A stretch of DNA of 64,000 nt from an uncultured Verrucomicrobiae bacterium (GTDB lineage: Bacteria > Verrucomicrobiota > Verrucomicrobiia > Limisphaerales > Palsa-1400): positions 737,191-801,190 of the forward strand of contig CAVPOM010000006.1 in NCBI GenBank assembly GCA_963707025.1, read 5' to 3'. The notes beneath the pieces are model-generated. The model was not told the origin of the DNA. It was given only the letters and a program-made list of their open reading frames with translations, and did no database searches. The position numbers were made by a program, and so were the translations under genes. Shown here piece by piece: positions 1-59,632 of the stretch (the stretch's first letter is position 1; every line of letters begins with the position of its first letter).

Positions 1-2122
1 GTGGATGTCGGCTGGGGCGACTTGATCTTTCACCTGGGTGACGATCCCGGCACCCGCAGCATCGTCATTTACATGGAAACCATCGGCGACGCCCGCGCCT
101 TCCTCTCCGCGGCCCGGGAAGTTGCCCTGACCAAGCCCATCATCGTCATCAAGCCCGGCCGCAGTTCCGCGGCGGCCAAGGCGGCTGCCTCGCACACCGG
201 CTCATTGACCGGCAGTGACGAGGTGTTGCAGGCGGCCTTCCAGCGCGCCGGGGTGTTGCGGGTCGAGAACATCTCCGAGTTGTTCGACATGGCCGAAGTT
301 CTTTCCAAGCAGCCGCGTCCCCGGGGCCCGCACCTGACGCATCATCACCAATGCCGGCGGTCCGGCCGTGCTGGCCACGGACATGCTGATCACCGGCGGC
401 GGCCAGTTGGCGGAACTGACGCCCGAAACGATGGCGGCCTACAACCAGATTCTGCCCCCTACCTGGAGCCATAACAACCCGGTGGACATCATTGGCGACG
501 CCGGCCCGGAATTATACGCCAAGGCGGTGGACCTTGCGGCCAAAGACCCGAATACCGATGGCTTGCTGGTGATCCTGACGCCCCAAGCCATGACGGATGC
601 GACCGCGACGGCCGAGCAACTCAAGCCCTTCGCCCGCCTGGAAGACAAACCGATCCTGGCCAGTTGGATGGGGGCGGACGAAGTGGAGGGGGGGGAGGAC
701 ATTCTCAACGCCGCCAATGTGCCGACCTTTAAATATCCGGACCGGGCGGCCCGGGCCTTCTGTTACATGTGGCGCTACACGCAGAACCTCCGCGCCCTCT
801 ACGAAACTCCCGTGGCGGCGCCCGAATCGGAGGATGTGGCCAGCGCGCGCCACGACGCCGACGCCATGCTCAAGGCCATTCGCCACCAGGGACGCAGCCT
901 GCTGACTGAATTTGAGTCCAAGCAACTTCTGGCCGCGCATGGCATCCCTACTGTGGAAACCCATGTCGCCGCCACTGAGGCCGAAGCCGTGGGGCACGCC
1001 ACCCGCTTGGGTTTTCCCGTCGTGCTCAAGCTCTACTCGGAAACCATCAGCCATAAGACCGACGTCGGCGGCGTGCAGTTGAACCTGCGCAATGCGACCT
1101 CGGTGCGCCGCGCCTGGCACGCCATTCAAAACTCCGTCGTGGCCAAGGCCGGCGAGGAACATTTCCTGGGCGTGACGGTCCAGCCGATGATCAAATTGGA
1201 GGGCTACGAGTTGATCATCGGCAGCAGCATTGATCCGCAGTTCGGACCGGTGCTGTTGTTTGGCGCTGGCGGTCAGTTGGTGGAAGTCTCCAAGGACCGC
1301 GCCCTGGCTTTGCCGCCGCTCAATGCCACCCTGGCCCGGCGCATGATGGAGGGCACCCGCATCCTCACCGCCTTAAAGGGCGTCCGTGGGCGCGCCGCGG
1401 TGGATGTGCCCGCGCTGGAACAATTGCTGGTGCGCTTCAGCGAGCTGGTGGTGGCGCATCCGTGGATCAAGGAAATTGACATCAATCCGCTCATCGCCGC
1501 GCCCGGACGCCTCCTGGCCCTGGACGCGCGCGTGGTGCTGCACCCGCCCACGACCCCGGAAACGGCGCTGCCCACTCCCGCCATCCGGCCCTATCCGGTG
1601 CAATACGTCGGGGTGTGGAAATCGAAGAACAAAAAGCGCATCGTCATCCGGCCCATCCGTCCGGAAGACGAACCCTTGATGGTGAAGTTCCACCAAACCC
1701 TCTCCGAACAAAGCGTCTATCAACGCTATTTCAGCGTCCTGCAATTGTCGCAGCGCACCGCCCACGAACGGCTGACGCGGATTTGTTTCAATGATTACGA
1801 CCGCGAGATCGCGCTGGTGGCCGAACACCGGGAAACCCCGGGGGCGGAACCGTGCATTCTGGGCGTCGGGCGCTTGAGCAAGCTGCACGGCGTGAACGAG
1901 GCCGAATTCGCCCTCCTCGTCAGCGACCCCTGGCAGGGGATCGGGCTGGGCACCGAACTGCTCAGGCGCATCGTGCAGGTCGGCCGCGAGGAGAAACTGA
2001 AACGCCTTATCGGCCACGTTCTGGCGGACAACCACGCCATGAAGCTGGTTTGCCAGCAGGTCGGGTTCAAAGTCGGGCACGAGGCTGATCACCACGATCT
2101 ATTGGCCGAATTCAAGTATTAA
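1..2122 (+). pseudogene. Pat-like bifunctional ADP-forming acyl-CoA synthetase / GNAT acetyltransferase; 5' end lies outside the window; frame interrupted near 335-345
   Basis: ORF 1..474 ([29 protein letters not shown], CoA-ligase-type domain) continues in another frame as ORF 368..2122. The junction reads ...RGPHLT / [16 protein letters not shown]. An ATP-grasp region and a C-terminal GNAT motif (QGIGLGTELL) follow. Confidence 0.8.
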
Positions 2123-2203
2123 CTCATCCGCCGCGCGGGGGAGCGCGCGCCGGGGTGGCCGGCAAGCACCTGCCATGGCGCGGACCGCCGCAAAGATCAA
2201 CCC

Positions 2204-4231
2204 ATGATTCCCAAGCTGACTACTTGCACTTTCTGCGGCACCGGCTGCGGCATTTATTTGGAAACCGAGGGCAACCGGATCGTTGGCGCCTATCCGAGCA
2301 TGTCGCATCCGGCCAACAAAGGGAAGATTTGCCTGCGCGGCTGGCATGTGCATGAAGTGGCCAGTTCCCCGGACCGCGTCTTCAGCCCGCTGCTCCGCAG
2401 GAACGGCCGGTTTGAGAAAGCCTCCTGGGGTGAGGCCCTGGACTTCGTCGCCTCACGCCTCGGGAAAATCCGCGACCAATACGGCCCCGAGTCGGTCGCC
2501 TTCCTCGACTCGCCCCGTTGTTCCAACGAGGAAGCCTACCTCACGCAAAAGCTGGCCCGCACCATCATCGGCACCAACAACGTGGATCACGGCGCCGGTG
2601 TCTATTGCAACAACTCCATCAATGTCCTCCTCGACATGCTCGGCATTGCCGCGGCCACCAACTCCATCGGCGAACTGGCCCGCAGCGGCGTCATCATCGT
2701 GGACGGCGTTGACCTGGGCCGCCAATTGCCGACCATTGGCGGCTGGGTCATTCGCGCAAAACTTAGCGGGACCCGGCTCATCGTCGTGGATTCCCGCCGT
2801 CATCGGGTGGCGGAAAACGCCGACATTTTCCTGCAGATCAAACCCGGCACCGAATCCCTCCTCTACGGCGCCCTGGCCAAGGTCATCGTGGACCGTGGCC
2901 TGCTGGACCTGCCCTTTGTCAAGGCCCGCTGCGAGGGGTGCGAAGCGTTTCTGGCGCGGGTGCGGGATTACGATCTGCTCCAGGCCGCCGAAGGTTGCGG
3001 CGTGCCGGCGGAGTTGATCGAGGAGGCGGCCCTGGCCTACGGCCGGGCGAAGAGCGCGGCCATCCTTTATTCGACCGGGGTGGAAGCCCGCGACGAGGAC
3101 AGTATCCGCGGCATCATCAACCTGGCGCTGCTCACCGGCAACTTGGGCAAGGAAGGGGCGGGCGTGTTCCCCTTGACCGAGCACAATAATTTGCAGGGCG
3201 TGTGCGACATGGGCATGTTGCCGGACCGGTTGCCGGGTTATCAGTCCATCCACAATCCCAAGGCGCGCGCCGCGCTGGAAGGCCTCTGGCGGGCGACGGT
3301 GCCCGCCATGCCGGGGGTGGGAGCCGACACGCTCTTTGCCGGGGGCGGGCGCGCGCCGCTCAAGGCGCTCTGGCTTGGGCGTTATGACCCGATTAGCACG
3401 GCGTTTTTCGGCGACGCCGCCGCCGCGCTGGCCCGCTGCGAACTGGTCGTCGTGCAGCATTTGTTCATGACCGAATCCACCGCCTTCGCCGATGTGGTGC
3501 TGCCGGCCACGGCCTTCGGCGAGGAACGTGTTTCCTTCACCAGCACCGAGAGACGGATTCAAATCGCCGAGCGCGTGATTGACCCGCCCGAGGGTCCCAT
3601 GCCCGCCTGGGAACAACTGACTCGCCTGGCCCGGGCCATGGGCGCCCCCTGGAGTTATGAGTCCGCCGCGGAGGTCATGCGCGAGATCGGGGAGGTCATC
3701 CCCTTCTACAGCGGGGCCAGCCATGACAACTTGATGCGCGATTACGGCCGCCAATGGCCCTGCACCACCGACCGCCCGCTCGGCACCGCGCGTCTGTTTG
3801 CCGGGGATGAAATGGACCGGCCTTTCAAGTTTGTTCCCGTCGCCCGGCCGCCGAAACCGGCCGGAAATCCGGACGGGTTCCCCTTCACTTTGGTCTTCGG
3901 ACATTCCCTTTACTATTGGCATCAAAATGTCCTCATCCGGCACAGTGAGACACTCAAGCGCGAATATCGTCTCCTGTTGCTGGATTATCCGGACGGCTTC
4001 GTCGAGATCAACAGCGACGACGCCAAGCGCCTGGGCATCCGCGACGGCGACCGGATCCGCCTGAGCACGGCCGGCGGCACGCTGACCTCCGCGGCGCGAG
4101 TGACGCCGGAAGTGCGCAGCGGCACGGCGTTTGTTCCGTACTTTGTGCGGCAAATGAAACGGGAAATGCTCGGCCCCACTGGCGACGGCACAGCCCTGGT
4201 TCCGGTGCGCGTGGAAAAGGAGGCGTCATGA
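2204..4231 (+). CDS. Molybdopterin oxidoreductase, formate dehydrogenase H (FdhF)-like catalytic subunit
   Basis: 675-aa intact ORF. N-terminal 4Fe-4S motif CTFCGTGCG...C(43)LRGW and the GTNNVD block typical of FdhF-type Mo/W-bisPGD enzymes. Its stop overlaps the next gene's start (4228/4231). There is no in-frame TGA. Confidence 0.85.
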   Translation: MIPKLTTCTFCGTGCGIYLETEGNRIVGAYPSMSHPANKGKICLRGWHVHEVASSPDRVFSPLLRRNGRFEKASWGEALDFVASRLGKIRDQYGPESVAFLDSPRCSNEEAYLTQKLARTIIGTNNVDHGAGVYCNNSINVLLDMLGIAAATNSIGELARSGVIIVDGVDLGRQLPTIGGWVIRAKLSGTRLIVVDSRRHRVAENADIFLQIKPGTESLLYGALAKVIVDRGLLDLPFVKARCEGCEAFLARVRDYDLLQAAEGCGVPAELIEEAALAYGRAKSAAILYSTGVEARDEDSIRGIINLALLTGNLGKEGAGVFPLTEHNNLQGVCDMGMLPDRLPGYQSIHNPKARAALEGLWRATVPAMPGVGADTLFAGGGRAPLKALWLGRYDPISTAFFGDAAAALARCELVVVQHLFMTESTAFADVVLPATAFGEERVSFTSTERRIQIAERVIDPPEGPMPAWEQLTRLARAMGAPWSYESAAEVMREIGEVIPFYSGASHDNLMRDYGRQWPCTTDRPLGTARLFAGDEMDRPFKFVPVARPPKPAGNPDGFPFTLVFGHSLYYWHQNVLIRHSETLKREYRLLLLDYPDGFVEINSDDAKRLGIRDGDRIRLSTAGGTLTSAARVTPEVRSGTAFVPYFVRQMKREMLGPTGDGTALVPVRVEKEAS

Positions 4232-5304
4232 AGGCGCGCCTGCTGGCCCTGGCCGACGTACTGAAGATTACGGACCTGCTGCGCGGACGCGGCTACGAGG
4301 TCATCGCGCCGTTCTGCGGGCGCGGCCGGGACAGTTACTTCGACACCGTGACCGACGCGAATCGCATGCAGGTGCAGATTCATCTGCCCAATCCGTATTA
4401 CCCTCCCAAGCGCTTTGTCTTTCCGCACATCGAGCGCTTGCTCAAGGTTCGAGGGCCCAACGGTGCCATGAAGATTGAGCCGACTTATGAGGAGCCCCGC
4501 CGCGCCATTTTCGGCATCCGCTCCTGCGATGTCGCCGGCCTGTGGCATCTGGACCGTTTCTACCTGGGCCGTGATTTCCGGGATGTCTATTATGAGAAGC
4601 GCCGCAAGAATCTCTTCCTGGTCAACGTCGTTTGCACCGACCCGGCGCGCGACATTGGCGAGGACTGCTTTTGTCTGTGCGCCGACACCGGACCGGCCGC
4701 GCGCGATCATTTTGACTTGCAGCTCATGGACCTGGGTGACGGTGATTTCATGGCCGTGGCCGGAACGCCGGCTGGCGAAGAACTTTTCTCCGAGCCGATT
4801 TTCCGCCAGGCGACCGCCGCGCATGTGGAACGCCGCCGCGCTCTTCTGGCCGGGGTGCGCCAGCAATTCCGCACCACGACCAGTTGGTTTCCCGCCACCG
4901 TCCGCTACGTTTCGCAGGGCGCGATCCTGGACAAGACCTGGGAGGAAATCGGCAACCGCTGCCTGGAATGCGGCGGCTGCACCTACGTCTGTCCCGCCTG
5001 CACTTGTTTCACCGTGTCCGACCGCCAGGTGGGGCCGGAACAAATCGAGCGCGTGCGGATTTGGGATTCCTGCGCCCTGCGCGGCTTCACGCGCATGGCG
5101 GGCGGTTTCAACCCCCGCCGCGCGGTGCATGACCGCCGCAACCGCCGCTTTTTCCGCAAGCTGGCGTATTACTTCATCCAGCGCGAACTGTCCATGGCCT
5201 GCGTCGGCTGCGGCCGTTGCGCCGCCGTCTGCCACGGCGACATCGGCATGCCCAGCGTCGTGGAGATGATCCGGCGCGCCGCGCCTAAGAATGAGAAGTC
5301 TTAG
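4228..5304 (+). CDS. 4Fe-4S cluster protein, AsrA / sulfhydrogenase beta (HydB)-like
   Basis: 358-aa ORF with the motifs CLECGGCTYVCPACTC and CVGCGRCAAVCHGDIGM. It overlaps both neighbouring genes. Confidence 0.72.
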   Translation: MKARLLALADVLKITDLLRGRGYEVIAPFCGRGRDSYFDTVTDANRMQVQIHLPNPYYPPKRFVFPHIERLLKVRGPNGAMKIEPTYEEPRRAIFGIRSCDVAGLWHLDRFYLGRDFRDVYYEKRRKNLFLVNVVCTDPARDIGEDCFCLCADTGPAARDHFDLQLMDLGDGDFMAVAGTPAGEELFSEPIFRQATAAHVERRRALLAGVRQQFRTTTSWFPATVRYVSQGAILDKTWEEIGNRCLECGGCTYVCPACTCFTVSDRQVGPEQIERVRIWDSCALRGFTRMAGGFNPRRAVHDRRNRRFFRKLAYYFIQRELSMACVGCGRCAAVCHGDIGMPSVVEMIRRAAPKNEKS

Positions 5305-6154
5305 AGCCGAAATGCATCCCACTGACAACATTTATCTGCCCAAGCTGGCGGTCCTGGACCGGGTGGCGGAGGACATCCCGGAAGTGAAGACGTTTTACTG
5401 GCGCTTCGAGGACCCGGCGGCGCAGGCGGAGTTCAAACGCTTCCGCCCGGGACAATTCGCCCAGATTTCCGTGTTCGGCGCGGGCGAATTCCCGGCCTCG
5501 CTTCCGCCCAGCCCGACCGAGGAGGAGACCTTTTTCACCATCCGGCAAGTCGGCAGTTGCACCGCCGCCCTCCATCAACTTAAACCGCGCGACAAATTCG
5601 CGGTGCGCGGCCCTTACGGCAACGGCTTTCCGATGGAGGATTATCAAGGGATGAACCTGACCTTCGTCGCCGGCGGCATCGGGTTGATTCCCTTGCGCTC
5701 CTGCATCGTCTATGCGCTCAAACACCGCTCCAAATACGGGCGGATCCAGGTGTTCTATGGCGCAAAAACTCCCGGCGAACTCATGTACCGGGCGGATTTG
5801 CGGGCGTGGGAGAAGGCCGGCGGCATGGAGTGTCATCTTACCGTGGACCGCGGCGGGGGCGGCTGGACCGGGCATGTCGGCGTAGTGGGCAGCCTCTTCA
5901 AGAAAGCCGGGGTGGACGTGCCGGTGGACAACACCACCGTCTTCGTCTGCGGCCCGCCGGTCATGTTCCGCTTCGTCATCCGGGACCTGCTCGCGCTGGG
6001 TTTCAAGGAGCGCCACATCGTCTCCACTCTGGAGCGTTACATGAAATGCGGGGTGGGCAAGTGCGGCCATTGCTGCATTGGCGTCGCCTATATATGCGTG
6101 GACGGCCCGGTATTCACCTACGAACAAATCAAAAAACTTGGGGAGGACATTTAA
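5291..6154 (+). CDS. FAD/NAD(P)-binding oxidoreductase with a C-terminal Fe-S Cys cluster, AsrB / sulfhydrogenase gamma (HydG) / PyrK-like
   Basis: 287-aa ORF with a ferredoxin-reductase-type fold signature (RPGQFAQISVFG, LTFVAGGIGLIPLRS). C-terminal CGVGKCGHCCIG...CVDGPVF. Confidence 0.78.
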   Translation: MRSLRAEMHPTDNIYLPKLAVLDRVAEDIPEVKTFYWRFEDPAAQAEFKRFRPGQFAQISVFGAGEFPASLPPSPTEEETFFTIRQVGSCTAALHQLKPRDKFAVRGPYGNGFPMEDYQGMNLTFVAGGIGLIPLRSCIVYALKHRSKYGRIQVFYGAKTPGELMYRADLRAWEKAGGMECHLTVDRGGGGWTGHVGVVGSLFKKAGVDVPVDNTTVFVCGPPVMFRFVIRDLLALGFKERHIVSTLERYMKCGVGKCGHCCIGVAYICVDGPVFTYEQIKKLGEDI

Positions 6155-6675
6155 TGCCCGGCCTGCGCGAACAAATTCAGTCCGCTCTTCATGGCCGGGT
6201 CTGTTTCCTGGGCCTGGGCAATGTGGAGGGCGGCGACGACGGTTTGGGAGTGCGGCTGGCGGAAGCGCTGGCCCGCGCCGGGGTGCCCGATGTCCTCGTC
6301 GGCGGAACCGCCCCGGAGCAACTGGCCGGCCGTTGCGTTGCCAGTGGGTTCGACCATCTGGTTTTTCTGGATGCGGTGGATGTTGGCGCCGCGCCCGGCT
6401 CGGTCGTCTTCCTGAATTCAGAGGAAATGGCTGCGCGCTTTCCGCAGATTTCCACCCACCACCTCGCGCTGGGCCTGTTGGCCCGGTATGTTGAATCCAG
6501 CGGCAGGACGCGGGCCTGGCTCCTGGGCGCCCAACCGGCCTCCTTAAAACGCGGGCTGTTGCTTGCGCCCGCCATGCAAACGACCTTGGCCATCCTCACC
6601 GAACTGATTGTGAGTTCTTTTTTGGGCCGCGGTTGTTCCACTCCTAATCTTTATGAATTGGAGCAGATTCCCTGA
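6154..6675 (+). CDS. hycI: [NiFe]-hydrogenase maturation endopeptidase (HycI/HyaD family)
   Basis: The start lies in a TAATG overlap with the upstream stop. The product MPGLREQ...VCFLGLGNVEGGDDGLGVRLAE carries the GxGNxxxxDDGxG motif. It sits inside the hydrogenase operon. Confidence 0.8.
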   Translation: MPGLREQIQSALHGRVCFLGLGNVEGGDDGLGVRLAEALARAGVPDVLVGGTAPEQLAGRCVASGFDHLVFLDAVDVGAAPGSVVFLNSEEMAARFPQISTHHLALGLLARYVESSGRTRAWLLGAQPASLKRGLLLAPAMQTTLAILTELIVSSFLGRGCSTPNLYELEQIP

Positions 6676-6678
6676 AAC

Positions 6679-8678
6679 ATGATGACTCCCGAAAAGGCCG
6701 TGTTTGCGTCCATGCTCGTCTGCATCGCCGGAGCGCTGCTGACGTGGCTGACCGCCCGGAACCGGACGCTGGCGGGCTGGCTCGCCTTCCTGGTGACCGC
6801 CGCGAGTGCGACCCTCGTCTTCCTGGCCGTGGGGACCGTGCTGGCTGGCGGCGCTTCCGCCGGCTCGGAAGCATTTCTCCCGCTGCCGGCGCTGGGTTTC
6901 GCCCTGCGCTTGCATGTGGACGGATTGACCGCGTTGTTCCTGCTGCTGGCGGCGCTGATCGCGGTGCCGGCTTCGTTTTATTCCATTGCCTACATGAGGC
7001 ATTATCCCGATTATGGCGTCGCCCGGTATTATCCCTGGTTCCTCCTGTTCCTGGCGGCGATGTTCGGCCTGCTCAGCACCACGGACATGATGTGGTTCTT
7101 CCTCATTTTCTGGCAGATGATGACTCTGCCCGGCTACGCGCTCATCCGTTTCGAGCACAAAAAACCGGGCAACATTCGCGCGGCCAACAAATTTCTGTGG
7201 ATGATGCAAATCGCATGCGCGGCGACTCTCCTCGGCGCGCAGATTCTGGCCGGCGCGGGCGCCTCTGCCAATGCGGGCATGGGGGTGAAGTATGACTTCG
7301 ACACCGTGAGCGCGAATCTGCCGGCGTTGTTGCACTCCCACCCAGTCCTCACGGCGACGGCCTTCGCGCTGTTCCTCGCCGGTTTTGGCATCAAGATGGG
7401 CATGTGGCCCTTTGGGCAGATATGGCTGCCGGACGCGCACCCCGCGGCGCCTTCCCCGGTCAGCGCGATGCTTTCCGGTGTCATGATCAAGACCGGGGTT
7501 TATGGCCTGATGCGCTATTTCCTCTGGCTGACGCCCGCGCCGGCGCAGGCCGCTTTCCCCTGGGACGCTGGGGTTTGGTGGTGGCGGTGCTTGGGACCAT
7601 CACGCTTTTCACCGGCACCATGCAGGCCCTCAAGCAGGAGCAGACCAAGCGCCTGCTGGCCTTCCACAGCATCGGCCAGGTCGGCTACATCCTGCTCGGT
7701 TTCGGGGCCTGCATGGCGCTGCTGCCGGCCGCAGGACCGGAGGCTGCCACACTGGCGGCCCTGGGCATGACCGGCGCGCTCTTTCACACCCTCAACCACG
7801 GCGTCTTCAAGGCGCTGCTCTTCCTCAACGCCGGCTCCATGCTCCACGCCACCGGCACGCAGGACCTGAACAAAATGGGCGGTTTGCTCAAATACATGCC
7901 GCTGACGGCTGCCACGGCGCTCGTCGCCTCCCTCTCCATTTCCGGCGTGCCCTTGTTCAACGGCTTCGCCAGCAAATGGACGATTTACGTGGCGACGGTG
8001 CAAGGCAGCCATCTGGCCGGCTATCTGGCCGTGTGCGCCGCCATTGCCATCCTGACCAGCGCACTGACCCTGGCCTCGTTCGTCAAGTTCTTTGGGGCCG
8101 GCTTCCTGTCACGCACAAGCGCGCTGGTGAAGGAGAAGGCCGCCTGCCGGCGCCGGCTGGAGGTTGGGATGATCATGCAATTACCGCAGTTGATGCTGGC
8201 GCTGATCTGCCTGCTGCTGGGGATCATGCCGGCCATTGCCTGCAGCCTGATTCAGAGCGCGCTGGCGGCAAGCCCTCATGGTTTTGGCCAGGCCCTCGGC
8301 CGCGCGGTGCCTGCCCCAGGCAACCTGTGGGCCGGCCTGTCCGGGACCGGGTTGCGTTGCCTGTTCGTTCCGCTGGCCTTGCTGGCCGTCCTGGCGCTGG
8401 CGCTTTTTGCGGCCGGGTTTATTTCAAAGCTCGGCGGCGCGCCGCGCCGCGCCTCGCCTCCCTGGCTTTGCGGCTACGCGCGCGAGGCGGAATGCAACCG
8501 TTACGTGGCGCACGGCTTTTACGGCGAGATCAAACGTTATTTCCGCTGGCTCGGCGGCGCACCCGCGCCGCAGCACGAATCCTCTCCTAATCCTAATCTT
8601 AATCCTAATCTTAATCTTAATCCTAATCGTAATCTTAATCCTAATCGTAATCCGAATGAATCCCGTCTTCGACCATGA
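6679..8678 (+). pseudogene. hyfB: Hydrogenase-4 component B / formate hydrogenlyase subunit 3 (NuoL/ND5-like membrane subunit); frame interrupted near 7555-7575
   Basis: ORF 6679..7770 is homologous up to ...MIKTGVYGLMRYFLWL. Homology continues in ORF 7404..8678 from ...WGLVVAVLGTITLFTGTMQALKQEQTKRLLAFHSIGQVGYILLG. The C-terminal tail (P/L/R)N x12 is encoded by the hexamer array. Confidence 0.85.
8586..8657 (+). repeat. Tandem hexanucleotide array, 12 units of CYTAAT-type (cctaat/cttaat/cgtaat/ccgaat)
   Basis: Read directly from the sequence: cctaat cctaat cttaat cctaat cttaat cttaat cctaat cgtaat cttaat cctaat cgtaat ccgaat. It lies inside the 3' end of the hyfB reading frame. Confidence 0.95.
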
Positions 8679-8695
8679 AAAGCTACAAAAAGGAG

Positions 8696-8725
8696 ATTAA
8701 GATTAAGATTATGATTAAGATTAAG
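8696..8725 (+). repeat. Inverted partner array, 5 units ATTAAG (attaag attaag attatg attaag attaag) flanked by AGGAG on both sides
   Basis: ATTAAG is the reverse complement of CTTAAT. The array lies 38 nt downstream of the first array and 35-70 nt upstream of the hycE start (8765). Confidence 0.95.
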
Positions 8726-8764
8726 AGGAGCAGAGACCCATGCGCCTTTTGAAGGAACCTTGAA

Positions 8765-10454
8765 ATGATTGCGCGCGAAAAACTGGATCAGTTGCAGGCA
8801 AGGTGGGCTTCCGCCATCCGGCGGGCCGACTTGCCCTCCGACCGCTGCCTGTTCGTCTTCGTGGAAGCGTCCGCTTTGAAGGGCGTGTGTCAGTACGTTT
8901 TTCGCGATCTGAATGCCCGCTATGTGACCAGCATCGGGGCGGATGACCGGCCCTTCTCCGGTTCGTTCCTGGTGGCGCACCATTTTGCCTTTGATCAGGA
9001 CCATGTATTGTGCAGCATCCTGGCGGAGATTCCGCCCGGCGATCATCCCAGAGTGGACAGCATCTCGGAGGTGGTGCCCCCGGCGAATTGGGCCGAGCGG
9101 GAAATGCGCGATCTGGTGGGCATCGAGCTGACCGGCCATTCCTATCCCAAGCGCCTGGTCCTGCCGGACGGCTGGCCGGAGGGCGTCCACCCGCTGCGCA
9201 AGGACATCCCCTGGAATTTTGTGCCCGAAGGCTACGATGAGGAACGCGAATTCAAGTTCGACGAACCGCCCGAAGGCTGCACCGTCGTGCCGTTCGGCCC
9301 GTTTCATCCCACCCTGGATGAACCGGCCCATTTCCGGCTCTACGTGGACGGCGAGCGGGTGCGCGGGTGCGAATACCGCGGCTTCATGGCCCATCGCGGG
9401 ATCGAGAAACTGGCCGAGTCGGTGCTCAGCTACAACGACATCCCGATCATGGCCGAGCGCATCTGCGGCATCTGCGGCTGCGTGCATAACGTGACCTACG
9501 CGCAGGCGGTGGAAAGCGCCGCGGCCTTGCAAGCGCCGCCCCGCGCGGAGTATCTGCGCACCATCATGCTGGAACTGGAGCGGCTGCACAGTCATCTCCT
9601 TTGGGTCGGGCTGGCCTGCCACATCGTCGGTTTTGACACTTTGTTCATGCAATGCTTCCGCATTCGCGAGCCGGTCATGTGGGTGGCGGAGAAAATCACC
9701 GGCAACCGCAAAACTTACGGCCTCTGTGTCATCGGCGGGGTGCGGCGGGACTTGACGGATGAGTTGAAGGCCGAACTGCAACAGGTGCTCGCCGGGCTGG
9801 AAACGGAATGGCAGGCAGTGACCGGCGCGGTGCTGAAGGACCGGAACATCCAGCAGCGCACGCGCGGGGTGGGCATCGCCGACCGCAACTTGGTCAAGGA
9901 AGCCGGGCTGATCGGACCGGTGGCGCGCGCGGCGGGTGTGGAAATTGATTGCCGCCGCGATCATCCTTATGCCGCTTATGACCGCGTGGCTTTCGAGGTC
10001 ATCACCGCCGCCGACGGCGACGTTCTGGGCGCGGCTGGTGGTGCGGGCGCGAGAAGTATTTGAGTCCATTAAAATCATCCGGCAATGCCTCGACAAAATG
10101 GAAAGCGGGCCAATCCAGTTGGAGTTGAAGGACGAATTGCCGGTTGGCCGGCTGGGCATGTCAAGCATCGAAGCCCCGCGCGGGGAGTGTCATCACTTCG
10201 TCATCACCGGCGAGGGCAACCGTCCGCGCCGCTGGCGGGTGCGCGCCCCCACCTATCAGAATCTACAGGGCGTTCCGGCGATGATCAAGGACCAGCAACT
10301 GGCGGACATGACGATTACGCTGGGCAGCATAGACCCGTGTTTCTCCTGCACCGACCGTCTCGAAACCATTGACATCAAGTCCGGAGCGATCAAAGTCTGG
10401 TCGCCGGAAGAAATGCTCAAATTGGGCCAAGCCAAACAACGAATAGAGCCATGA
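8765..10454 (+). pseudogene. hycE: Group 4 [NiFe]-hydrogenase large subunit (HycE/HyfG-like, NuoC-NuoD fusion); frame interrupted near 10020-10030
   Basis: ORF 8765..10063 carries the NuoC-like N-terminus and the L1 Ni-binding motif RICGICGCVHNVTY. ORF 9936..10454 carries ...ARLVVRAREVFESIKIIRQCL and the L2 motif DPCFSCTDR followed by a 31-aa C-terminal extension. The junction is at GDV / (W)ARLVVR. Confidence 0.9.
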
Positions 10455-11164
10455 AAACAACAAGGCCATTTGCCACATCATGGTCAGCGACATTCCTCGC
10501 CGTGCTTTCGGCACAAGCCCAAGGCACATTTCAAAACCTGAATTTTGAGTCCGCTAATTTGTCGCCGATCGTATCGGGTCAATATGGAGGGGAGGTTGCG
10601 ATCAGTTCAGCCTTGCCGGGATGGAGCGCTACAATCGGCGGAGTTGCAGTGACACAGGTTTTGCAAAACAATTACACCCTTGGAGAAGCAAGCATAAGCA
10701 TCTTTGGCCCGAGCTGGAATGACGTTGACCCCGGCATTATTGACGGAAACTATACTGTGTTTCTGCAAGCGTTTAACCCAGGCCAAGGCAATGTGTCGCT
10801 GTGGCAAACCGGCACGATTCCGGCAAATGCGGCTTCGCTTCAATTCAGCGCTTGGAACTACACGTCAGTTAACGAAGCTTTTTCTGTGTCTTTCGCCGGT
10901 AACAGCTTGTCCCCGGTTTCCCTCGGCTCCGGACAATCCGCATCCGGACAAGCTTACACCGTCTACGGTGTCAGCATAGCCCCTTATGCTGGTCAGACAG
11001 GGCAACTCGAATTCACAGCCTTCGGTGGTCAAGGCCCGGACTGGATCGAGCTTGATGACATCGCGTTTTCCCCAAACGGCGTGCCCGAACCCAGCACGCT
11101 GGCGCTCGTCGTCATCGGCGGACTGGCGCTGGCCGCCCGCCGCTGGCGCAAAGTGGCTTCATGA
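10451..11164 (+). CDS. PEP-CTERM sorting-domain secreted protein
   Basis: Signal peptide (MKTTRPFATSWSATFLAVLSAQAQG). C-terminal VPEPSTLALVVIGGLALAARRWRK. ATGA start/stop overlap with hycE. GC is lower than the flanks. Confidence 0.85.
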   Translation: MKTTRPFATSWSATFLAVLSAQAQGTFQNLNFESANLSPIVSGQYGGEVAISSALPGWSATIGGVAVTQVLQNNYTLGEASISIFGPSWNDVDPGIIDGNYTVFLQAFNPGQGNVSLWQTGTIPANAASLQFSAWNYTSVNEAFSVSFAGNSLSPVSLGSGQSASGQAYTVYGVSIAPYAGQTGQLEFTAFGGQGPDWIELDDIAFSPNGVPEPSTLALVVIGGLALAARRWRKVAS

Positions 11165-11179
11165 AAACCACAACCTTAT

Positions 11180-12106
11180 ATGCAACGTGACCTGATATGG
11201 ATAATGGCAAGGGGACTGGCCAATGTGGCCGCAGTGCTGCTCTTCGCGCCGCTGTGCGAAGGGGTGCTGCGGAAGGTGACGGCGCGCCTGCAATCGCGCC
11301 GGGGACCACCGCTGTGGCAGCCTTATTTTGACCTGCTGAAGTTGCTCGGCAAGGAGGACATTGAATCGGGCGAATCACCGGGCTTGCAGCGGTTTGTCGC
11401 CCGGCTGGCGCTGGCGGCGGTGCTGACAGTGGCCTGCCTGGTGCCGATGGGATTTGCCGCGCCCATGAACGGAGCAGGGGACGTGATTCTGCTCATTTAC
11501 CTGCTGACCCTCTGCGGCATCAGCACGTTGCTCGGCGGCCTGGCGGCGGGGTCCACTTATTCGCTGCTCGGCATCGGGCGCGAGATGATGACGATGATCG
11601 CCCTGGAACCGTTGTTTGCCATTGCCCTCCTCATCGGCGCGGTCCATGTGGGGTCGTTCCGGCTGGACGCCGTTTTGAACGGCTCAGTTTATGCCGTCAC
11701 TGGCATTCCGTGGTCGGGGCTGATCCTGCTGGTGGTGATGGTGCTGTCCTTCCAGGCGTTTGTGCAACGGATGCCGTTTGACATTTCCGAGGCGGAAACG
11801 GAAATTATGGAAGGGCCGCTGGTGGAGTACTCCGGCCCCAAGCTGGCCCTGTTCAAGTACGCGCAAATGGCGCGGCTGGTGGTTCACAGCGGGTTGTTCG
11901 TCGCGTTGTTTGTGCCCTGGGGAGCGGGGCTGGCCTTCCCGCTGGGCTGGTTGTTGTTCTGGGCAAAAGTGCTGGCGCTGGTGCTGATCGTGACGGTCGT
12001 GGCGGCGACGCACGCGCGCTACCGGATTGACCAGGCCATTCGATTTTTCGCCGGATTGCTGGCGGCGGCGTTCGCGGCCCTGGCCCTGGCGGCTTACGGT
12101 CACTGA
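11180..12106 (+). CDS. hycD: Formate hydrogenlyase subunit 4 (HycD/HyfC, NuoH-like membrane subunit)
   Basis: 308-aa polytopic ORF with the motif LFAPLCEGVLRKVTARLQSRRGPPLWQPYFDLLKLLGKE. An alternative start is at 11207. Confidence 0.85.
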   Translation: MQRDLIWIMARGLANVAAVLLFAPLCEGVLRKVTARLQSRRGPPLWQPYFDLLKLLGKEDIESGESPGLQRFVARLALAAVLTVACLVPMGFAAPMNGAGDVILLIYLLTLCGISTLLGGLAAGSTYSLLGIGREMMTMIALEPLFAIALLIGAVHVGSFRLDAVLNGSVYAVTGIPWSGLILLVVMVLSFQAFVQRMPFDISEAETEIMEGPLVEYSGPKLALFKYAQMARLVVHSGLFVALFVPWGAGLAFPLGWLLFWAKVLALVLIVTVVAATHARYRIDQAIRFFAGLLAAAFAALALAAYGH

Positions 12107-12119
12107 TGGAGGCGCATTC

Positions 12120-12644
12120 ATGTCCATGATGAGCAAATTCAAAGAAGCGATGGTCGGCCTCAAGGCCGGCTGCGTGACCCTGGATTATCCGGCGCAGCCG
12201 CGGCCGGTGGCGGAGAATTTCCGCGGCCGGCCGGTCTTCGACGCCCAAAAGTGCATCGGCTGCGCGGGCTGCGCCAACAACTGTCCGGCGCGCGAGATCC
12301 TGGTTTTCGATGTCTGCCAGGAAATTCGCATCCTGCAGTATCTGGGGCGGCGTTGCACCTACTGCGGACGGTGCGCGGAGGTTTGCCCGGAGAAGGCCAT
12401 CACCATGAGCCATGACTACGAGACGGCGACCAACAAAATTGGCGACATGGAGCAACGATTGGATTTGTTCATGAGCACCTGCCAGCGCTGCGGGCGTTGT
12501 TTCAAGGAAACTTCGCCCTTGGAAACGCTCAAGCTCAAGGGCTACCGCTTTGACGAGCTGGCCAGCGAGCGCTGGATTTTCCGCTCCCGCGCCTACCTGG
12601 AAAAGGAGCCGGTGGTGGATGACCTCAAGATCGAACTGGATTAA
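12120..12644 (+). CDS. hycF: Formate hydrogenlyase 4Fe-4S subunit (HycF, NuoI-like)
   Basis: ATG at 12120 within ORF 12027..12644. Two ferredoxin motifs, CIGCAGCANNCP and CTYCGRCAEVCP. Confidence 0.85.
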   Translation: MSMMSKFKEAMVGLKAGCVTLDYPAQPRPVAENFRGRPVFDAQKCIGCAGCANNCPAREILVFDVCQEIRILQYLGRRCTYCGRCAEVCPEKAITMSHDYETATNKIGDMEQRLDLFMSTCQRCGRCFKETSPLETLKLKGYRFDELASERWIFRSRAYLEKEPVVDDLKIELD

Positions 12645-12650
12645 ACCGCC

Positions 12651-13187
12651 ATGCTGAAGAATCTTTGCCAAAAAATGTTCGGCCGCTCGCTCTGGGTCTA
12701 TCACGCCAACAGCGGCGGCTGCAACGGCTGCGACATCGAGGTGCTCAACGTGCTCACGCCCTATTATGACGTGGAGCGTTTCGGCATCAAGCTGGTCGGC
12801 TCGCCGCGCCACGCGGATGTGATGCTCTGCCAGGGGCCGGCCCTGCGCGCCACTGCGCGGGCTTTGCGCTGCGCCTACGAGGCGATGCCGGCGCCCAAGC
12901 TGGTCTTTGCCATCGGCGGCTGCGCCTGCGGCGGCGGCATCTGGCACGACACTTATGCTGTGCTCGGCCCGGTGGAAAAAGTCATCCCGGTCAACTTCTA
13001 CATTCCCGGCTGCCCGCCGCGGCCCGAAGCCATCATCTATGGCGTGGCGGTGGCCGTCGGGCTGGTGGACAAGAAGGTGGCGCCGGTGGAGTTCAAGCAA
13101 CTGGAAATGCCCATTCCACGCTACCACCCCGCCGACCTCCGCGGCCGGGACGAAATGGTGGTTTACGAAAAGGTGGAGAAGGTTTAG
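12651..13187 (+). CDS. hycG: Group 4 [NiFe]-hydrogenase small subunit (HycG, NuoB-like)
   Basis: Motifs SGGCNGCDIEV, GGCACGGGIW and IPGCPPRPEAIIYG. Confidence 0.9.
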   Translation: MLKNLCQKMFGRSLWVYHANSGGCNGCDIEVLNVLTPYYDVERFGIKLVGSPRHADVMLCQGPALRATARALRCAYEAMPAPKLVFAIGGCACGGGIWHDTYAVLGPVEKVIPVNFYIPGCPPRPEAIIYGVAVAVGLVDKKVAPVEFKQLEMPIPRYHPADLRGRDEMVVYEKVEKV

Positions 13188-13191
13188 CTTA

Positions 13192-13539
13192 ATGCACGAG
13201 TATTCCATTATGCAAAGCGCGCTCCATCAGGCCTTGCGGGAAGCCCGGCTGGCCGGAGCCGCGCGCGTGCATGAAATCCGGCTGCGCGTCGGCGTGCTCA
13301 GTGGAGTCGTGCCCGACGCGCTCCAGTTCGCCTTCGAGGCGCTCACGCCCGGAACGTCCGCGGAAGGCGCTTTGTTGAGGATTGAGGAAGTGGCGGCGCG
13401 ATTCTGGTGCGCCCCGTGCGGCCGGGAGTTTGTGTCGGCCAATTTGTACGCCGAGTGCCCGGATTGCGGCGCCGCCAGCGGCGAACTTCGCGCCGGGCGG
13501 GAATTGGAATTAAGCTCGATGGAGGTGGACCATGTGTGA
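13192..13539 (+). CDS. hypA: Hydrogenase nickel-incorporation protein HypA
   Basis: MHEYSIMQSAL... N-terminus. Zn-finger pairs CAPCG and CPDCG. Overlaps the hypB start. Confidence 0.85.
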   Translation: MHEYSIMQSALHQALREARLAGAARVHEIRLRVGVLSGVVPDALQFAFEALTPGTSAEGALLRIEEVAARFWCAPCGREFVSANLYAECPDCGAASGELRAGRELELSSMEVDHV

Positions 13540-14368
13540 AGATTGCGGCTGCGGGTTGACCGCGGGAATTCCAGTGACCGTTTCCGGCCACAACCAGCAT
13601 GACCCTGGCGATCATGAACACCATCACCACGACCCTGAGCACGGACACGGGCATTCGCACGACCATCCTCATTCGCACGAACCCGGCGCGGCAGAGCGTC
13701 AGACGATGGAACTGCGGCACGCCATCCTTGAGAAGAACGACCGCCTGGCCGAACGCAACCGCGGCTTCTTCCGGGCGCGCGGGCTTTTGGTCATCAATGT
13801 CCTCTCCGCTCCCGGCTCGGGCAAAACGACGCTGATTGGCGAAACCATCCGCCGGCTCGGCCCGCGCCTGAAGACGGCCGTGATTGTCGGCGATCTGGCG
13901 ACCGACAACGACGCCCGCCGCCTGCGCGATTCCGGCGCGCCGGTCGTCCAGATCAACACAGGCACGGTCTGCCATCTGGAAGCGGACATGGTGGCCCGCG
14001 CCGTCAAGCAACTGGATCTGGCCGGGCTGGACCTGCTCATCATCGAGAACGTCGGCAACCTGGTCTGCCCGGCCAGCTATGATTTGGGCGAGGACCTGCG
14101 CATCGTGCTGTTGTCGGTCACGGACGGCGAGGACAAGCCGCTGAAATATCCCCCCATCTTCCACCTGGCCAACGCGGTCATCGTCAGCAAATTGGATCTG
14201 GACCGGGCCTGCGACTTCAACCGCGAGGCGGTGACGGCGAACATCCGCCACATCGCGCACCACGCCCGGCTGTTCGAAATCTCCGCCAAGACCGGGACCG
14301 GCCTGGATGACTGGTGCGACTATCTGTTACAGCAGCACCAAGCTGTCCAACACCGCGATCCGCTCTAA
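13532..14368 (+). CDS. hypB: Hydrogenase nickel-incorporation GTPase HypB
   Basis: N-terminal CEDCGCG. His-rich tract HEHHHHDPEHGHGHSHDHPHSHE. P-loop GSGKTTL. ENVGNLVCP motif. Confidence 0.9.
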   Translation: MCEDCGCGLTAGIPVTVSGHNQHDPGDHEHHHHDPEHGHGHSHDHPHSHEPGAAERQTMELRHAILEKNDRLAERNRGFFRARGLLVINVLSAPGSGKTTLIGETIRRLGPRLKTAVIVGDLATDNDARRLRDSGAPVVQINTGTVCHLEADMVARAVKQLDLAGLDLLIIENVGNLVCPASYDLGEDLRIVLLSVTDGEDKPLKYPPIFHLANAVIVSKLDLDRACDFNREAVTANIRHIAHHARLFEISAKTGTGLDDWCDYLLQQHQAVQHRDPL

Positions 14369-14480
14369 TCGGCGCGCCCATTAATGATGCACTGTGAAAC
14401 TTGGCGCAGGCAAGGGCGCCGGACTATCTCGTATTGGGCGCCCGATGAGGAAGAGTAGAATTCGGTTTGGCCAATGATTT

Positions 14481-16355
14481 ATGAGCGACCCCCTGCACAA
14501 GGAGGACAATGTCACCTACCAAAACGTGGCCACGGTTTCGGGCGGCAAGCTGACCGATATCAAGCCGGCCCAGCGGGCGGGCGCGTTGCGCGGCGCCCAG
14601 TTGCTGGCCAAGGCCCTGCGCGCCGAGGGCGTGGATACGCTGTTTGGCTATCCCGGCGGCGCGAATCTGGAAATCTTCGACGTGCTGCGCGAATTCGACA
14701 TCCGCTGCATCCGCACGGAACACGAGCAAGGCGCGGCCCATGCGGCGGAGGGCTATGCCCGCGCCACCGGCAGGGTGGGGGTGTGCCTGGCCACCTCGGG
14801 TCCGGGAGCCACCAACCTGGTCACGGGCCTGGGCGATGCCCATAGTGATTCCACTCCCATCGTCGCCATTACCGGCAATGTCCCGTCGCATCTGCTGGGC
14901 AAGAATGCCTTTCAGGAGGTGGATATCGTGGGCGTGACCAAGCCGATCACCAAAAAGAATTACCTGGTGAAAAGGGTGACGGACATCCCCGAAGTGGTGC
15001 GCGAAGCCTTCGCCCTGGCAGGCGGCAATCGCCCCGGACCGGTGTTGATTGATATTCCCAAGGATATTCAGCAACAGTATCCGCGCGACGCGGAGGGCAA
15101 TTACACCCCGCCCCGCATTCCGGCCATCATCGAAGCGCCGGAGCCTGAGATCGGCGGACTGACCGCGGATCAACTGGGCGAGTGCTGCCGCCTGCTGGAG
15201 GAGGCCCGGCGTCCGGTCATTTACGCCGGCGGCGGCATCGTCTCCTCCGGCAGCGCGGCGGCCTTGTTGCAGTTGGCCGAACGCCTCCAGTGCCCGGTGA
15301 CCACGACCCTGATGGCTTGGGGCGCGTTTCCGCCGCAACATCCGCTGGCCCTGCATTGCCTGGGCATGCACGGCGGCAAATATGCCAACATCGCCGTCAA
15401 CGAGGCGGATTTGGTCATCGCGGCGGGCGTGCGCTTCGACGACCGGGTGACGGGAAACGTCCGCGAATTCATCAAGCGCGGCAAAATCATTCATATTGAC
15501 ATAGATCGCGACGAACTGAACAAGAACAAGACGGTGACGCTGCCCATCTGCGCCAATGTGGCGGTGGCCCTGGCGCAACTGGCCGGCCGGGCCAGCGGCG
15601 GCGATTACAGCCAGTGGCGCAAGTATCTGGCGTCGTTGCGGGAGCAACACCCGTTTCAAGTTCCGGCGTCGGAGAAGATCAAGCCGCAACACGCCATCCG
15701 GTTGCTGAGCGATTTAACGGGCGGCGAAGCCATCATCACTCTGGGCGTGGGCCAGCACCAGATGTGGGCCATGCAACACTACCAGTCCAAGCGGCCCCGT
15801 TCCTTTCTGAGCAGCTCCGGCTTTGGCACCATGGGCTACGGGCTGCCCGCCGCCATCGGGGCCAAGGTGGGTTGCCCGGACCGGATGGTGATTGATATTG
15901 ACGGCGACGGTTCGCTCAACATGACCGTGCATGAACTGGCCACCTGCCGCCGCTTCGGCCTGGGCGTCAAGGTGGTCGTGATCAACAACCAATGGCTGGG
16001 CATGGTGCGCCAGTGGCAGGACATGATTTATGGCGGACACCGTTCCGGCTCAGCCATGGCGGACCCCGCCACGGCGGTGAAACCCGAGGGGGAAGATGAT
16101 GTTTATCCCGATTTCGTGACCATCGCCGCGGGCTATCGCGTCCGCGCCGAACGCGTCAAGCAAAAAGCGGAATTGCCGGCCGCGTTTGCCCGGATGCTCG
16201 CCGACCCCGGCGAGCCGTTTTTGCTGGACGTGATTGTGGAAGGGGAGGAAAACGTGTTTCCGATGATTCCGGCCGGCGGCAGCTACCGGGACATCATCAT
16301 GAGCGCGGAGGATCTGGCGGCGCGCAACCGCGGTTCGCAGGGCAGTTCTATTTAA
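14481..16355 (+). CDS. ilvB: Acetolactate synthase large subunit (biosynthetic type, ThDP-dependent)
   Basis: 624-aa intact ORF with the motifs FGYPGGANLEIFD, GQHQMWAMQHY and GDGSLNMTVHELAT. Confidence 0.88.
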   Translation: MSDPLHKEDNVTYQNVATVSGGKLTDIKPAQRAGALRGAQLLAKALRAEGVDTLFGYPGGANLEIFDVLREFDIRCIRTEHEQGAAHAAEGYARATGRVGVCLATSGPGATNLVTGLGDAHSDSTPIVAITGNVPSHLLGKNAFQEVDIVGVTKPITKKNYLVKRVTDIPEVVREAFALAGGNRPGPVLIDIPKDIQQQYPRDAEGNYTPPRIPAIIEAPEPEIGGLTADQLGECCRLLEEARRPVIYAGGGIVSSGSAAALLQLAERLQCPVTTTLMAWGAFPPQHPLALHCLGMHGGKYANIAVNEADLVIAAGVRFDDRVTGNVREFIKRGKIIHIDIDRDELNKNKTVTLPICANVAVALAQLAGRASGGDYSQWRKYLASLREQHPFQVPASEKIKPQHAIRLLSDLTGGEAIITLGVGQHQMWAMQHYQSKRPRSFLSSSGFGTMGYGLPAAIGAKVGCPDRMVIDIDGDGSLNMTVHELATCRRFGLGVKVVVINNQWLGMVRQWQDMIYGGHRSGSAMADPATAVKPEGEDDVYPDFVTIAAGYRVRAERVKQKAELPAAFARMLADPGEPFLLDVIVEGEENVFPMIPAGGSYRDIIMSAEDLAARNRGSQGSSI

Positions 16356-30415: not shown

Positions 30416-30500
30416 GCGCGGGCGGAGCCGCCCCTGGCTTTCCCGGCCGCCCGGCAAAATTTGACTTTGAATCGCGGGGCGGAAAGTCCATTGTGCGCGC

Positions 30501-49939: not shown

Positions 49940-49979
49940 AATGTTTTCATGGGTGCATTCGCATCGGCGCGGGTTTCTA

Positions 49980-54054: not shown

Positions 54055-54090
54055 CCCAATCTTAATCTTAATCTTGATCTTAATCCTCAT
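54055..54090 (-). repeat. Third copy of the hexamer repeat family: on the minus strand AGGAG-atgagg-attaag-atcaag-attaag-attaag-attggg
   Basis: The plus strand reads cccaat cttaat cttaat cttgat cttaat cctcat ctcct. It lies 115-150 nt upstream of the gspE/pilB start, in sense orientation relative to that gene. Confidence 0.9.
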
Positions 54091-59600: not shown

Positions 59601-59632
59601 AATAGATTTTGCTAAACAGCATTGGACTGAGC

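Follow-up and report, generated by a model that had tools for sequence, protein, structure and literature searches.

A Hyc-Type [NiFe]-Hydrogenase Operon with a HydB/HydG-Like Pair and an FdhF-Like Subunit Predicted To Be No Canonical Formate Dehydrogenase, from an Uncultured Verrucomicrobiota Bacterium

Group 4 [NiFe]-hydrogenases are assigned formate, CO, or ferredoxin as partners in HydDB, where group 4a stands for formate hydrogenlyase and group 4f is labeled “formate-coupled (putative),” and where there is no group 4 class coupled to NAD(P)H (reduced nicotinamide adenine dinucleotide, with or without phosphate) (PMC5037454). Here, we describe a group 4 hydrogenase operon at positions 2204 to 14368 of a 64,000-nucleotide (nt) stretch (the window) of contig CAVPOM010000006.1, from an uncultured Verrucomicrobiae bacterium (assembly GCA_963707025.1). 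Its core is of the Hyc type known from Escherichia coli, its FdhF-like subunit lacks the catalytic residues of formate dehydrogenases (FDHs), and a HydB/HydG-like pair stands where a HycB connector would be expected. We give about an even chance (probability, roughly 0.5) to the reading that the products form a single Hyc-type complex coupling NAD(P)H/NAD(P)+ to H+/H2 via HydG and HydB, in which the FdhF-like protein would serve as an iron-sulfur (FeS) subunit that does not handle formate.

Formate hydrogenlyase 1 (FHL-1) of E. coli (group 4a; Protein Data Bank [PDB] entry 7Z0S) shares with this operon a NuoC-NuoD-fused large subunit, HycG, HycF, HycD, and one HycC/HyfB-type subunit, together with HycI and a subunit of the FdhF fold that has a single [4Fe-4S] cluster. 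The window differs in having no HycB, in the added HydB/HydG pair, and in an FdhF-like protein without the selenocysteine (Sec)/Cys-His pair and Arg. An earlier note on this DNA had also counted the subunit order C-E-D-F-G as a point of difference from hycBCDEFG; that difference is trivial.

The general architecture is already in the literature, in silico only, and the novelty implied by the earlier note was overstated, since modules of this sort had been pointed out in 2019 (PMC6349859) and an in silico description followed in 2026 (PMC13582414). Matheus Carnevali et al. (2019) reported for Saganbacteria RX5A an “oxidoreductase module” adjoining an Mrp-Mbh-type hydrogenase; like the present operon, it has a one-cluster fdhH-like protein that cannot be classified as an FDH, asrA-like and asrB-like genes, and a group 4 hydrogenase as neighbor. 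The Saganbacteria cluster has a CooF-like protein, Mrp-type antiporters, and an Mbh-like hydrogenase, whereas in the window the core is Hyc-like and CooF is missing. The study of September 2026 found Cys/Sec missing from about half the Fdh subunits of its group 4b clusters, with homologues of the beta and gamma subunits of sulfhydrogenase I (SHI) co-occurring; AlphaFold models of comparable clusters gave a three-branched FeS network joining the large subunit, SHI-gamma, and the Fdh-like protein (PMC13582414). Those clusters resemble the window in gene content (an Fdh-like protein without Cys/Sec, SHI beta/gamma homologues, and a membrane-bound group 4 hydrogenase) and have Acidobacteriota and Methylomirabilota among their hosts. 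The FdhF-like protein of the window itself has a Cys (C135) one residue from the aligned ligand position. In a typical cluster of that study, a HyfE-like subunit is accompanied by several antiporter subunits and multiple ferredoxins, whereas the window reads as a pared-down, Hyc-like form in which a single antiporter subunit is present, a HyfE-like gene is missing, and there is no ferredoxin beyond HycF.

What is new here is that the losses reach the His, Arg, and C-terminal motifs of the FdhF-like subunit, that they are common to the whole neighboring clade, and that the synteny holds universally across genomes of more than 80 species.

Gene layout of the operon

Open reading frames (ORFs) read from the window gave twelve codirectional genes on the + strand between 2204 and 14368, which appear to make up one tightly packed operon for a Hyc-type membrane-bound [NiFe]-hydrogenase and its maturation factors, together with one repeat structure, as follows.

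2204 to 4231, + strand: FdhF-like molybdopterin-oxidoreductase-fold subunit (675 amino acids [aa]; Pfam Molybdop_Fe4S4, Molybdopterin, and Molydop_binding).
4228 to 5304, + strand: HydB/AsrA-like iron-sulfur subunit (358 aa; Pfam Fer4_22; 16 invariant Cys).
5291 to 6154, + strand: HydG/AsrB-like flavoprotein (287 aa; Pfam NAD_binding_1 and DHODB_Fe-S_bind).
6154 to 6675, + strand: HycI-type large-subunit maturation endopeptidase (Pfam HycI; TIGR00072).
6679 to 8678, + strand: HyfB/HycC-like antiporter-type membrane subunit (about 666 aa when corrected; Proton_antipo_N/M across two frames).
8585 to 8726, no strand: hexamer-repeat hairpin over the hyfB 3' end and the hyfB-hycE spacer (Tandem Repeats Finder arrays, 8585 to 8657 and 8694 to 8726).
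8765 to 10454, + strand: HycE-type [NiFe] large subunit, a NuoC-NuoD fusion (562 aa when corrected; Pfam Complex1_30kDa, NiFeSe_Hases, and Complex1_49kDa).
10451 to 11164, + strand: PEP-CTERM sorting-domain protein (237 aa; Pfam PF07589; TIGR02595).
11180 to 12106, + strand: HycD/NuoH-like membrane subunit (Pfam NADHdh, E value of 6e-61).
12120 to 12644, + strand: HycF/NuoI-like subunit with two [4Fe-4S] clusters (NF009053; 7z0s_F, E value of 5.7e-23).
12651 to 13187, + strand: HycG/NuoB-like small subunit (Pfam Oxidored_q6).
13192 to 13539, + strand: HypA nickel metallochaperone (Pfam HypA, E value of 1.9e-30).
13532 to 14368, + strand: HypB GTPase with a His-rich N terminus (Pfam cobW; the translation contains HEHHHHDPEHGHGHSHDHPHSHE).

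The junctions measure, in order, −4, −14, −1, +3, +86, −4, +15, +13, +6, +4, and −8 nt; all overlap or are short (−14 to +15 nt) except for the single 86-nt spacer between hyfB and hycE. The hydB start overlaps the stop codon of the FdhF-like gene by 4 nt, and the ATG of hycI overlaps the hydG stop codon (TAATG); the starts of HycI and HypA were reread from the sequence as 6154 and 13192. Eleven of these genes had been named in the earlier note, with coordinates that proved correct and with assignments that Pfam and NCBIfam back in every case. Its total of eleven fell one short, as the PEP-CTERM gene between hycE and hycD had been overlooked.

FdhF-like subunit

The FdhF-like protein scores 543.5 bits against TIGR01591 (Fdh-alpha), below the cutoff of 666.25. 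It was aligned to solved FDHs (F420-dependent FdhA, 9T1S; FdhF of the Thermoanaerobacter kivui hydrogen-dependent CO2 reductase, 7QV7; and 7BKB), and in the three PDB alignments Y134-C135 lies opposite the Sec/Cys-His pair (E. coli U140-His141), while T325-E326-H327 lies opposite Arg-Gly-Gln, with T325-E-H-N-N replacing R-G-Q-N-N (E. coli R333). E. coli FdhH was a further match in the search of solved structures. The same holds across the family (about 80 species), where Sec/Cys140 has become Y or F (position 134), His141 has become C in 75% and otherwise S, G, A, or T (position 135), Arg333 has become T, S, A, or N (position 325, followed by an invariant E326), and Lys44 has become Arg. Ten canonical FDH neighbors all have R-G at the catalytic Arg position. 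Those ten are at least 90% conserved in 115 columns, of which the family has lost 37, including K45R, C130G, R132G, TGR565-567, H647, and N654/D661/P662. The C-terminal TGR, PFH, and N..DP motifs are among the losses, and we take these motifs to contact the pterin cofactors in the FdhH structure. The Cys ligands of the N-terminal [4Fe-4S] cluster (C8, C11, C15, and C43) are 100% conserved.

An exhaustive search of 1.84 billion representatives set this family sharply apart, with family representatives 58% and 51% identical and all other proteins at 38% or less. The nearest outside neighbors (P0125, P0126, P0128, P0129, P0130, P0141, P0149, and P0158) are also without the Cys-His pair and the Arg, and the canonical FDHs that come next beyond those eight have both. 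A HydB-like gene comes next, downstream, in all five of the outside neighbors that were looked up, and where contigs reach far enough downstream (three of three) they continue with HycI and hydrogenase genes.

On this evidence the FdhF-like subunit is predicted not to be a canonical FDH and to have lost residues needed for formate oxidation. The earlier note had proposed a link of formate and/or NAD(P)(H) to the hydrogenase; the NAD(P)(H) half of that proposal is plausible given the HydB/HydG pair, and the formate half is doubtful, because the Sec/Cys-His pair and the catalytic Arg are absent, the neighboring Cys is only 75% conserved, and the score stays below the Fdh-alpha cutoff (543 versus 666 bits). 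An NAD(P)H-linked hydrogenase rather than a formate hydrogenlyase is therefore probable, the “formate dehydrogenase” subunit having apparently lost its formate-oxidizing residues.

We consider quite unlikely the variant of formate hydrogenlyase favored in the earlier note, in which the FdhF-like protein would oxidize formate at a noncanonical site while HydB/HydG take the place of HycB and provide an additional NAD(P)(H) port. Its closest solved relatives are indeed true FDHs (E values of 1e-126 to 1e-101), Bacillus subtilis YjgC likewise has a Y-C pair without His, and peatland Acidobacteria have been reported with an “fdhF, hyf operon” annotated as formate hydrogenlyase (PMC6018796), which may be of the same cluster type. 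The catalytic Arg, however, is missing from all of the more than 80 family members and from the wider clade, neither His nor Gln follows the Cys, which is itself dispensable in about 25% of species, and the flanks inspected hold no formate channel or pyruvate formate-lyase gene.

HydB/HydG pair in place of HycB

No ORF for a HycB-type polyferredoxin (four [4Fe-4S] clusters) was found in the cluster or in the 64-kb window, where CxxCxxCxxxC motifs are confined to HydB and HycF, and the earlier statement that no HycB-type gene is present holds. The accompanying statement, that an AsrAB-like pair sits in its place, is borne out by the related loci: the pair always lies between the FdhF-like gene and hycI, and this invariable position makes HydB/HydG a credible substitute for the connector. 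The extension of HycF points the same way. In E. coli, a Cys quartet forms a metal site in HycF's C-terminal extension, which contacts HycB (PMC9474812), whereas HycF of the window keeps CxxCxxC there and is without the second Cys pair.

The best solved relatives of the pair are the beta subunit (9nez_B, E value of 2e-38, for HydB) and gamma subunit (9nez_C, E value of 1.5e-60, for HydG) of Pyrococcus furiosus SHI, a group 3b enzyme, and the pair is homologous to its NADPH-oxidizing beta/gamma module. Folds and all cofactor motifs agree with SHI beta/gamma and with Salmonella AsrAB: HydG has an NAD(P)-binding domain of the FNR type and a C-terminal [2Fe-2S] Cys motif, with AGGIGxIPL (the GGxGxxP NAD(P)-binding motif) and C253/258/261/269 conserved among relatives, as are the sixteen Cys of HydB. 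The difference lies in the partner, which in the window is a membrane-bound group 4 enzyme and not HydA/HydD or AsrC. Neither the group 3b large and small subunits (HydA/HydD) nor the siroheme protein AsrC occurred among the cluster genes scanned or in the gene tables of relatives that were read. Scores were all far below the equivalog cutoffs (HydB, 148 against 750; HydG, 213 against 650; AsrA, 118 against 323; AsrB, 189 against 289). A remnant of AsrABC-type sulfite reductase was considered and rejected, there being no AsrC and no score that reaches a cutoff. In the protein database, HydB homologues are labeled “sulfhydrogenase subunit beta (sulfur reductase)” or just “ferredoxin.”

Hydrogenase core

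HycG, HycF, HycD, and a HycC-type subunit are all present. The closest solved relative of the frame-corrected large subunit is E. coli HycE (7Z0S_E; 410 bits; 41% identity), against 248 bits for P. furiosus MbhL (group 4d), and the core is accordingly of the Hyc/Hyf type, as the earlier note had said. The frame-corrected hyfB product matches NF005086 (“hydrogenase 4 subunit B”) at 392 bits. Both NiFe motifs that had been read from the large subunit (RICGICGCVH and DPCFSCTDR) are there, and their Cys residues are 100% conserved in related large subunits; the HycG cluster Cys and both HycF ferredoxin motifs are likewise invariant among relatives. HycG is the most conserved subunit (mean column top frequency, 0.92). 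About 31 residues follow DPCFSCTDR, as expected of a C-terminal tail cleavable by HycI. The hydrogenase itself looks functional and Hyc-type, given intact NiFe ligands and the presence of HycI, HypA, and HypB. Group 4f was also considered as a class and rejected, since 4f clusters pair FdhA with NuoE/F-like genes or have no NiFe ligands.

Conservation of gene order

The genomes scanned comprised one per GTDB species; 174 stretches encode a close HydB relative, and 80 loci (L006 to L085), all from metagenome-assembled genomes (MAGs), were fetched. Their hosts belong to Verrucomicrobiota (Limisphaerales/Pedosphaerales), Terriglobia/Acidobacteriota, Nitrospirota, Tepidisphaeraceae, and Methylomirabilota, with one Methylacidiphilum MAG and one Chlamydiota MAG, and bog, fen, and groundwater account for most of the sources that record titles state. 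The nearest fetched relative is Verrucomicrobiota SPRUCE 604 (95% HydB identity). In the protein database, the HydB-like protein has 1,076 homologues at an E value of 1e-10 or less, the best 120 of which are all at least 78% identical.

The fdhF-asrA-asrB-hycI-hyfB synteny that the earlier note proposed to search for was found, and it extends further: in tblastn searches with all window proteins, the order FdhF-like-HydB-HydG-HycI-HyfB-HycE-HycD-HycF-HycG recurs in every locus long enough to hold it, out of about 85 that were fetched, and in at least six phyla. An arrangement that recurs identically in this way is not due to chance. In the distant locus L089 the nine-gene order is kept at identities of 35% (FdhF-like), 41% (HydB), 53% (HydG), and 52% (HycE), and in L090 and L091 the start of the cluster is identical as far as the short contigs extend. 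In the closest Verrucomicrobiota loci, the hypAB genes mostly lie 3' of the core, and one Acidiferrales locus (L021) has a weak HypA match.

This synteny bears on a further alternative, which we rate as very unlikely: two independent, cotranscribed enzymes, namely, a soluble FdhF-like/HydB/HydG oxidoreductase and a ferredoxin-dependent Ech-like hydrogenase. Ferredoxin can donate directly to NuoI-type subunits, as is established for Ech-type enzymes; hycI stands between the two gene blocks, and in one locus (L088) a second HydB/HydG pair has no hydrogenase core next to it. Against this, the blocks are never apart in the loci examined, even at the divergence of L089, the large subunit is Hyc-type and not Ech-type, and the trio would have no second substrate of its own if, as predicted, its FdhF-like member is not catalytic.

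The second HydB/HydG-like pair of L088 (644 to 3175), a distant locus, adjoins a Rex-type regulator (Put_DNA-bind_N and CoA_binding) and lies on the strand opposite to a pair of FdhF-like and HydB-like genes preceded by a two-component sigma-54 system; this is a hint that such modules may be regulated in response to NAD(P)H.

HydB identity is 73 to 95% across Verrucomicrobiota, Acidobacteriota, Nitrospirota, Planctomycetota, Methylomirabilota, and Chlamydiota MAGs, which is unusually high between phyla and suggests that the cluster is very strongly constrained, that it has recently spread as a whole by horizontal transfer, or both. A plasmid search with HydB returned only matches below 33% identity and gave no sign of plasmid carriage.

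Proposed electron path

In the complex that we favor, HycE, HycG, HycF, HycD, and one HyfB-type antiporter subunit would form the core, and the input module would consist of the HydG-like, HydB-like, and FdhF-derived proteins, instead of the catalytic FdhF and HycB polyferredoxin of E. coli. The HydG-like protein would carry flavin adenine dinucleotide (FAD), the NAD(P)(H) site, and a [2Fe-2S] cluster, and the HydB-like protein would carry several [4Fe-4S] clusters. Electrons would pass along NAD(P)H <-> FAD <-> FeS (HydG) <-> FeS (HydB) <-> HycF <-> HycG <-> NiFe. The FdhF-derived protein, with its [4Fe-4S] cluster retained and its formate-oxidizing site gone, may be a side branch or a scaffold, like the cofactor-less Mo domain of NuoG.

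The NAD(P)+/NAD(P)H couple lies at −320 mV and the H+/H2 couple at −414 mV; being so close in potential, they would let the complex run near equilibrium in either direction. An ion gradient could drive the evolution of H2 from NAD(P)H in fermentation, or H2-dependent NAD(P)+ reduction could conserve a little energy. The sequences show the gene content, the conserved synteny, the loss of FDH catalytic residues, and intact cofactor motifs in the other subunits; we infer the physical assembly of the complex, NAD(P)H as its substrate, the direction of the reaction, and its coupling to ions.

By functional analogy, the arrangement resembles the N module of complex I (NuoE/F/G), with a flavoprotein as NAD(P)H port, FeS relays, and an FDH-derived, noncatalytic subunit placed on a core of the NuoB/C/D/H/I/L type. 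HydB/HydG are not homologous to NuoE/NuoF, however, and the window keeps a NiFe site rather than a quinone site and has one antiporter-like subunit. The relationship of FdhF to NDUFS1 has been discussed (PMC9474812).

A broader claim is tentative, and we rate it as somewhat less probable than its opposite: that these loci represent a widespread, previously unrecognized physiological class of NAD(P)H-coupled, ion-translocating Hyc-type hydrogenases in soil and peat Verrucomicrobiota and Acidobacteriota, whose arm of dead FdhF, flavoprotein, and FeS relay would have reinvented NuoEFG independently. If so, this arm would be a present-day counterpart of the step by which formate hydrogenlyase is proposed to have given rise to NADH dehydrogenase, and matches to “asrA/asrB” and “fdhF” in these genomes would not mark sulfite reduction or the oxidation of formate. 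The debated transition from formate hydrogenlyase to complex I (PMC9474812) is touched by the combination of a Hyc-type core, a degenerate FdhF, and a flavoprotein port. The cluster is common in peat and soil (the 174 GTDB species-representative stretches and more than 1,000 HydB homologues given above), and models of fermentative H2 production and of H2 uptake there would change if a member proved to be NAD(P)H-linked and ion-coupled; labels such as formate hydrogenlyase and “sulfur reductase” would inflate the inferred cycling of formate and sulfur.

Weighing the proposed complex

Several observations weigh against the proposed NAD(P)H-linked complex with a noncatalytic FdhF-like subunit. 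In the alignment to B. subtilis YjgC, a one-residue shift pairs C135 with the ligand Cys of YjgC; Asn comes next, and the Arg is still missing. The FdhF-like protein keeps 65 of the 115 FDH-conserved columns, is under clear purifying selection (62 to 90% identity), and has replacement residues that are invariant in the family (E326, D170, E441, Q471, and R45). Because several replacements are themselves invariant, the protein appears to be constrained rather than decaying, and for all three of these reasons it may still bind a pterin cofactor and act on some other substrate. The hyfB and hycE genes are both frameshifted in the window. A scan of 1900 to 14700 for promoter and terminator consensus sequences was uninformative, since counts were at or below shuffle expectation.

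The main alternative is a three-substrate complex, in which a remodeled Mo/W-pterin site would act on a third substrate and a branched FeS network would join three redox couples, possibly by confurcation or bifurcation. Such a complex has been proposed from AlphaFold models of comparable clusters (PMC13582414), the FdhF-like protein keeps the motifs GTNNVD, NNLQGVCD, and TERRIQ, and its invariant replacements at or near the active-site position (E326, R45, and Y/F134) look like remodeling rather than decay. We nevertheless consider it unlikely, as the candidate ligand C is present in only 75% of the family (otherwise S, G, A, or T) and missing in the wider clade, the C-terminal motifs of canonical FDHs are lost or variable, and the flanks inspected hold no Mo-cofactor or FdhD-type genes. 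Nor is a bifurcating flavin module evident, HydG being a simple flavoprotein of the FNR/PyrK type.

As to the frameshifts, DNA alignment with eight relatives placed a 1-nt deletion in hyfB near 7552 to 7560 and a 1-nt insertion (an extra T) in hycE at 10023/10024. With the extra T taken out, hycE regains ...GDVWARLVVRAREV..., which matches the relatives. The Pat-like gene upstream of the operon has a 1-nt insertion at about 337 relative to five relatives, and all three indels examined are thus of a single base; other genes that are frame-split or truncated in the window are G6PD (30471 to 31559), a Ser/Thr kinase (36164 to 38941), a secretin (47644 to 49946), and KdpB/KdpA (57409 to 60769). 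Split or truncated genes turn up at unrelated places throughout the window, and the hyfB and hycE indels are therefore most likely errors of an error-prone (long-read) assembly. The contrary view, that the frameshifts and the PEP-CTERM insertion are real and that the cluster is a decaying pseudogene cluster in this genome, could appeal to two core genes each broken by a single-base indel and to a foreign gene and a repeat hairpin inside the operon. It appears highly improbable, as the damage at the Pat-like, secretin, G6PD, KdpA/KdpB, and kinase genes fits an error-prone assembly and the rest of the coding sequence is 85 to 91% identical to intact relatives.

Insertions, repeats, and neighboring genes

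The PEP-CTERM gene overlaps the hycE stop by 4 nt and has a local GC content of 0.55, against about 0.63, and it found no tblastn match in any related locus; it is best read as a lineage-specific insertion in the operon, outside the conserved cluster. The hycE-hycD junction that it occupies is an apparent insertion hot spot in this Verrucomicrobiota clade, with no insert in the acidobacterial loci. At the same junction, L007 (16014 to 16762) has ORFs that by eye resemble an AbrB/MazE-type antitoxin and a PIN toxin, and L001 (16048 to 18884) has a HARE-HTH protein, a PIN/MazE pair, and one further gene.

The hairpin (8585 to 8726) is AT-rich and consists of (TCCTAA/TCTTAA)n facing (AGATTA)n, with a folding energy of −42.4 kcal/mol (z, −5.6). 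Its left arm encodes an NPNLNPN... tail on HyfB, and the same hexamer recurs in a shorter array at 54058 to 54092. It is not in the conserved cluster and is probably absent from the closest relatives, as judged by short hyfB-hycE tblastn spacing alone.

Between hyfB and hycE, L032 (14165 to 16300) has a second, paralogous HyfB-type antiporter gene, which gives it two antiporter-like subunits, and a comparable gap of about 2 kb, by size only, is found in L034, L035, L039, L043, L049, L057, and L064.

Upstream of the operon, the Pat-like gene (1 to 2122), which combines an ADP-forming acyl-coenzyme A synthetase and a GNAT acetyltransferase in one fusion, ends 81 nt before the FdhF-like gene. It is adjacent in the same way in the nearest relative (L006) and lies about 4.7 kb upstream in other close relatives.

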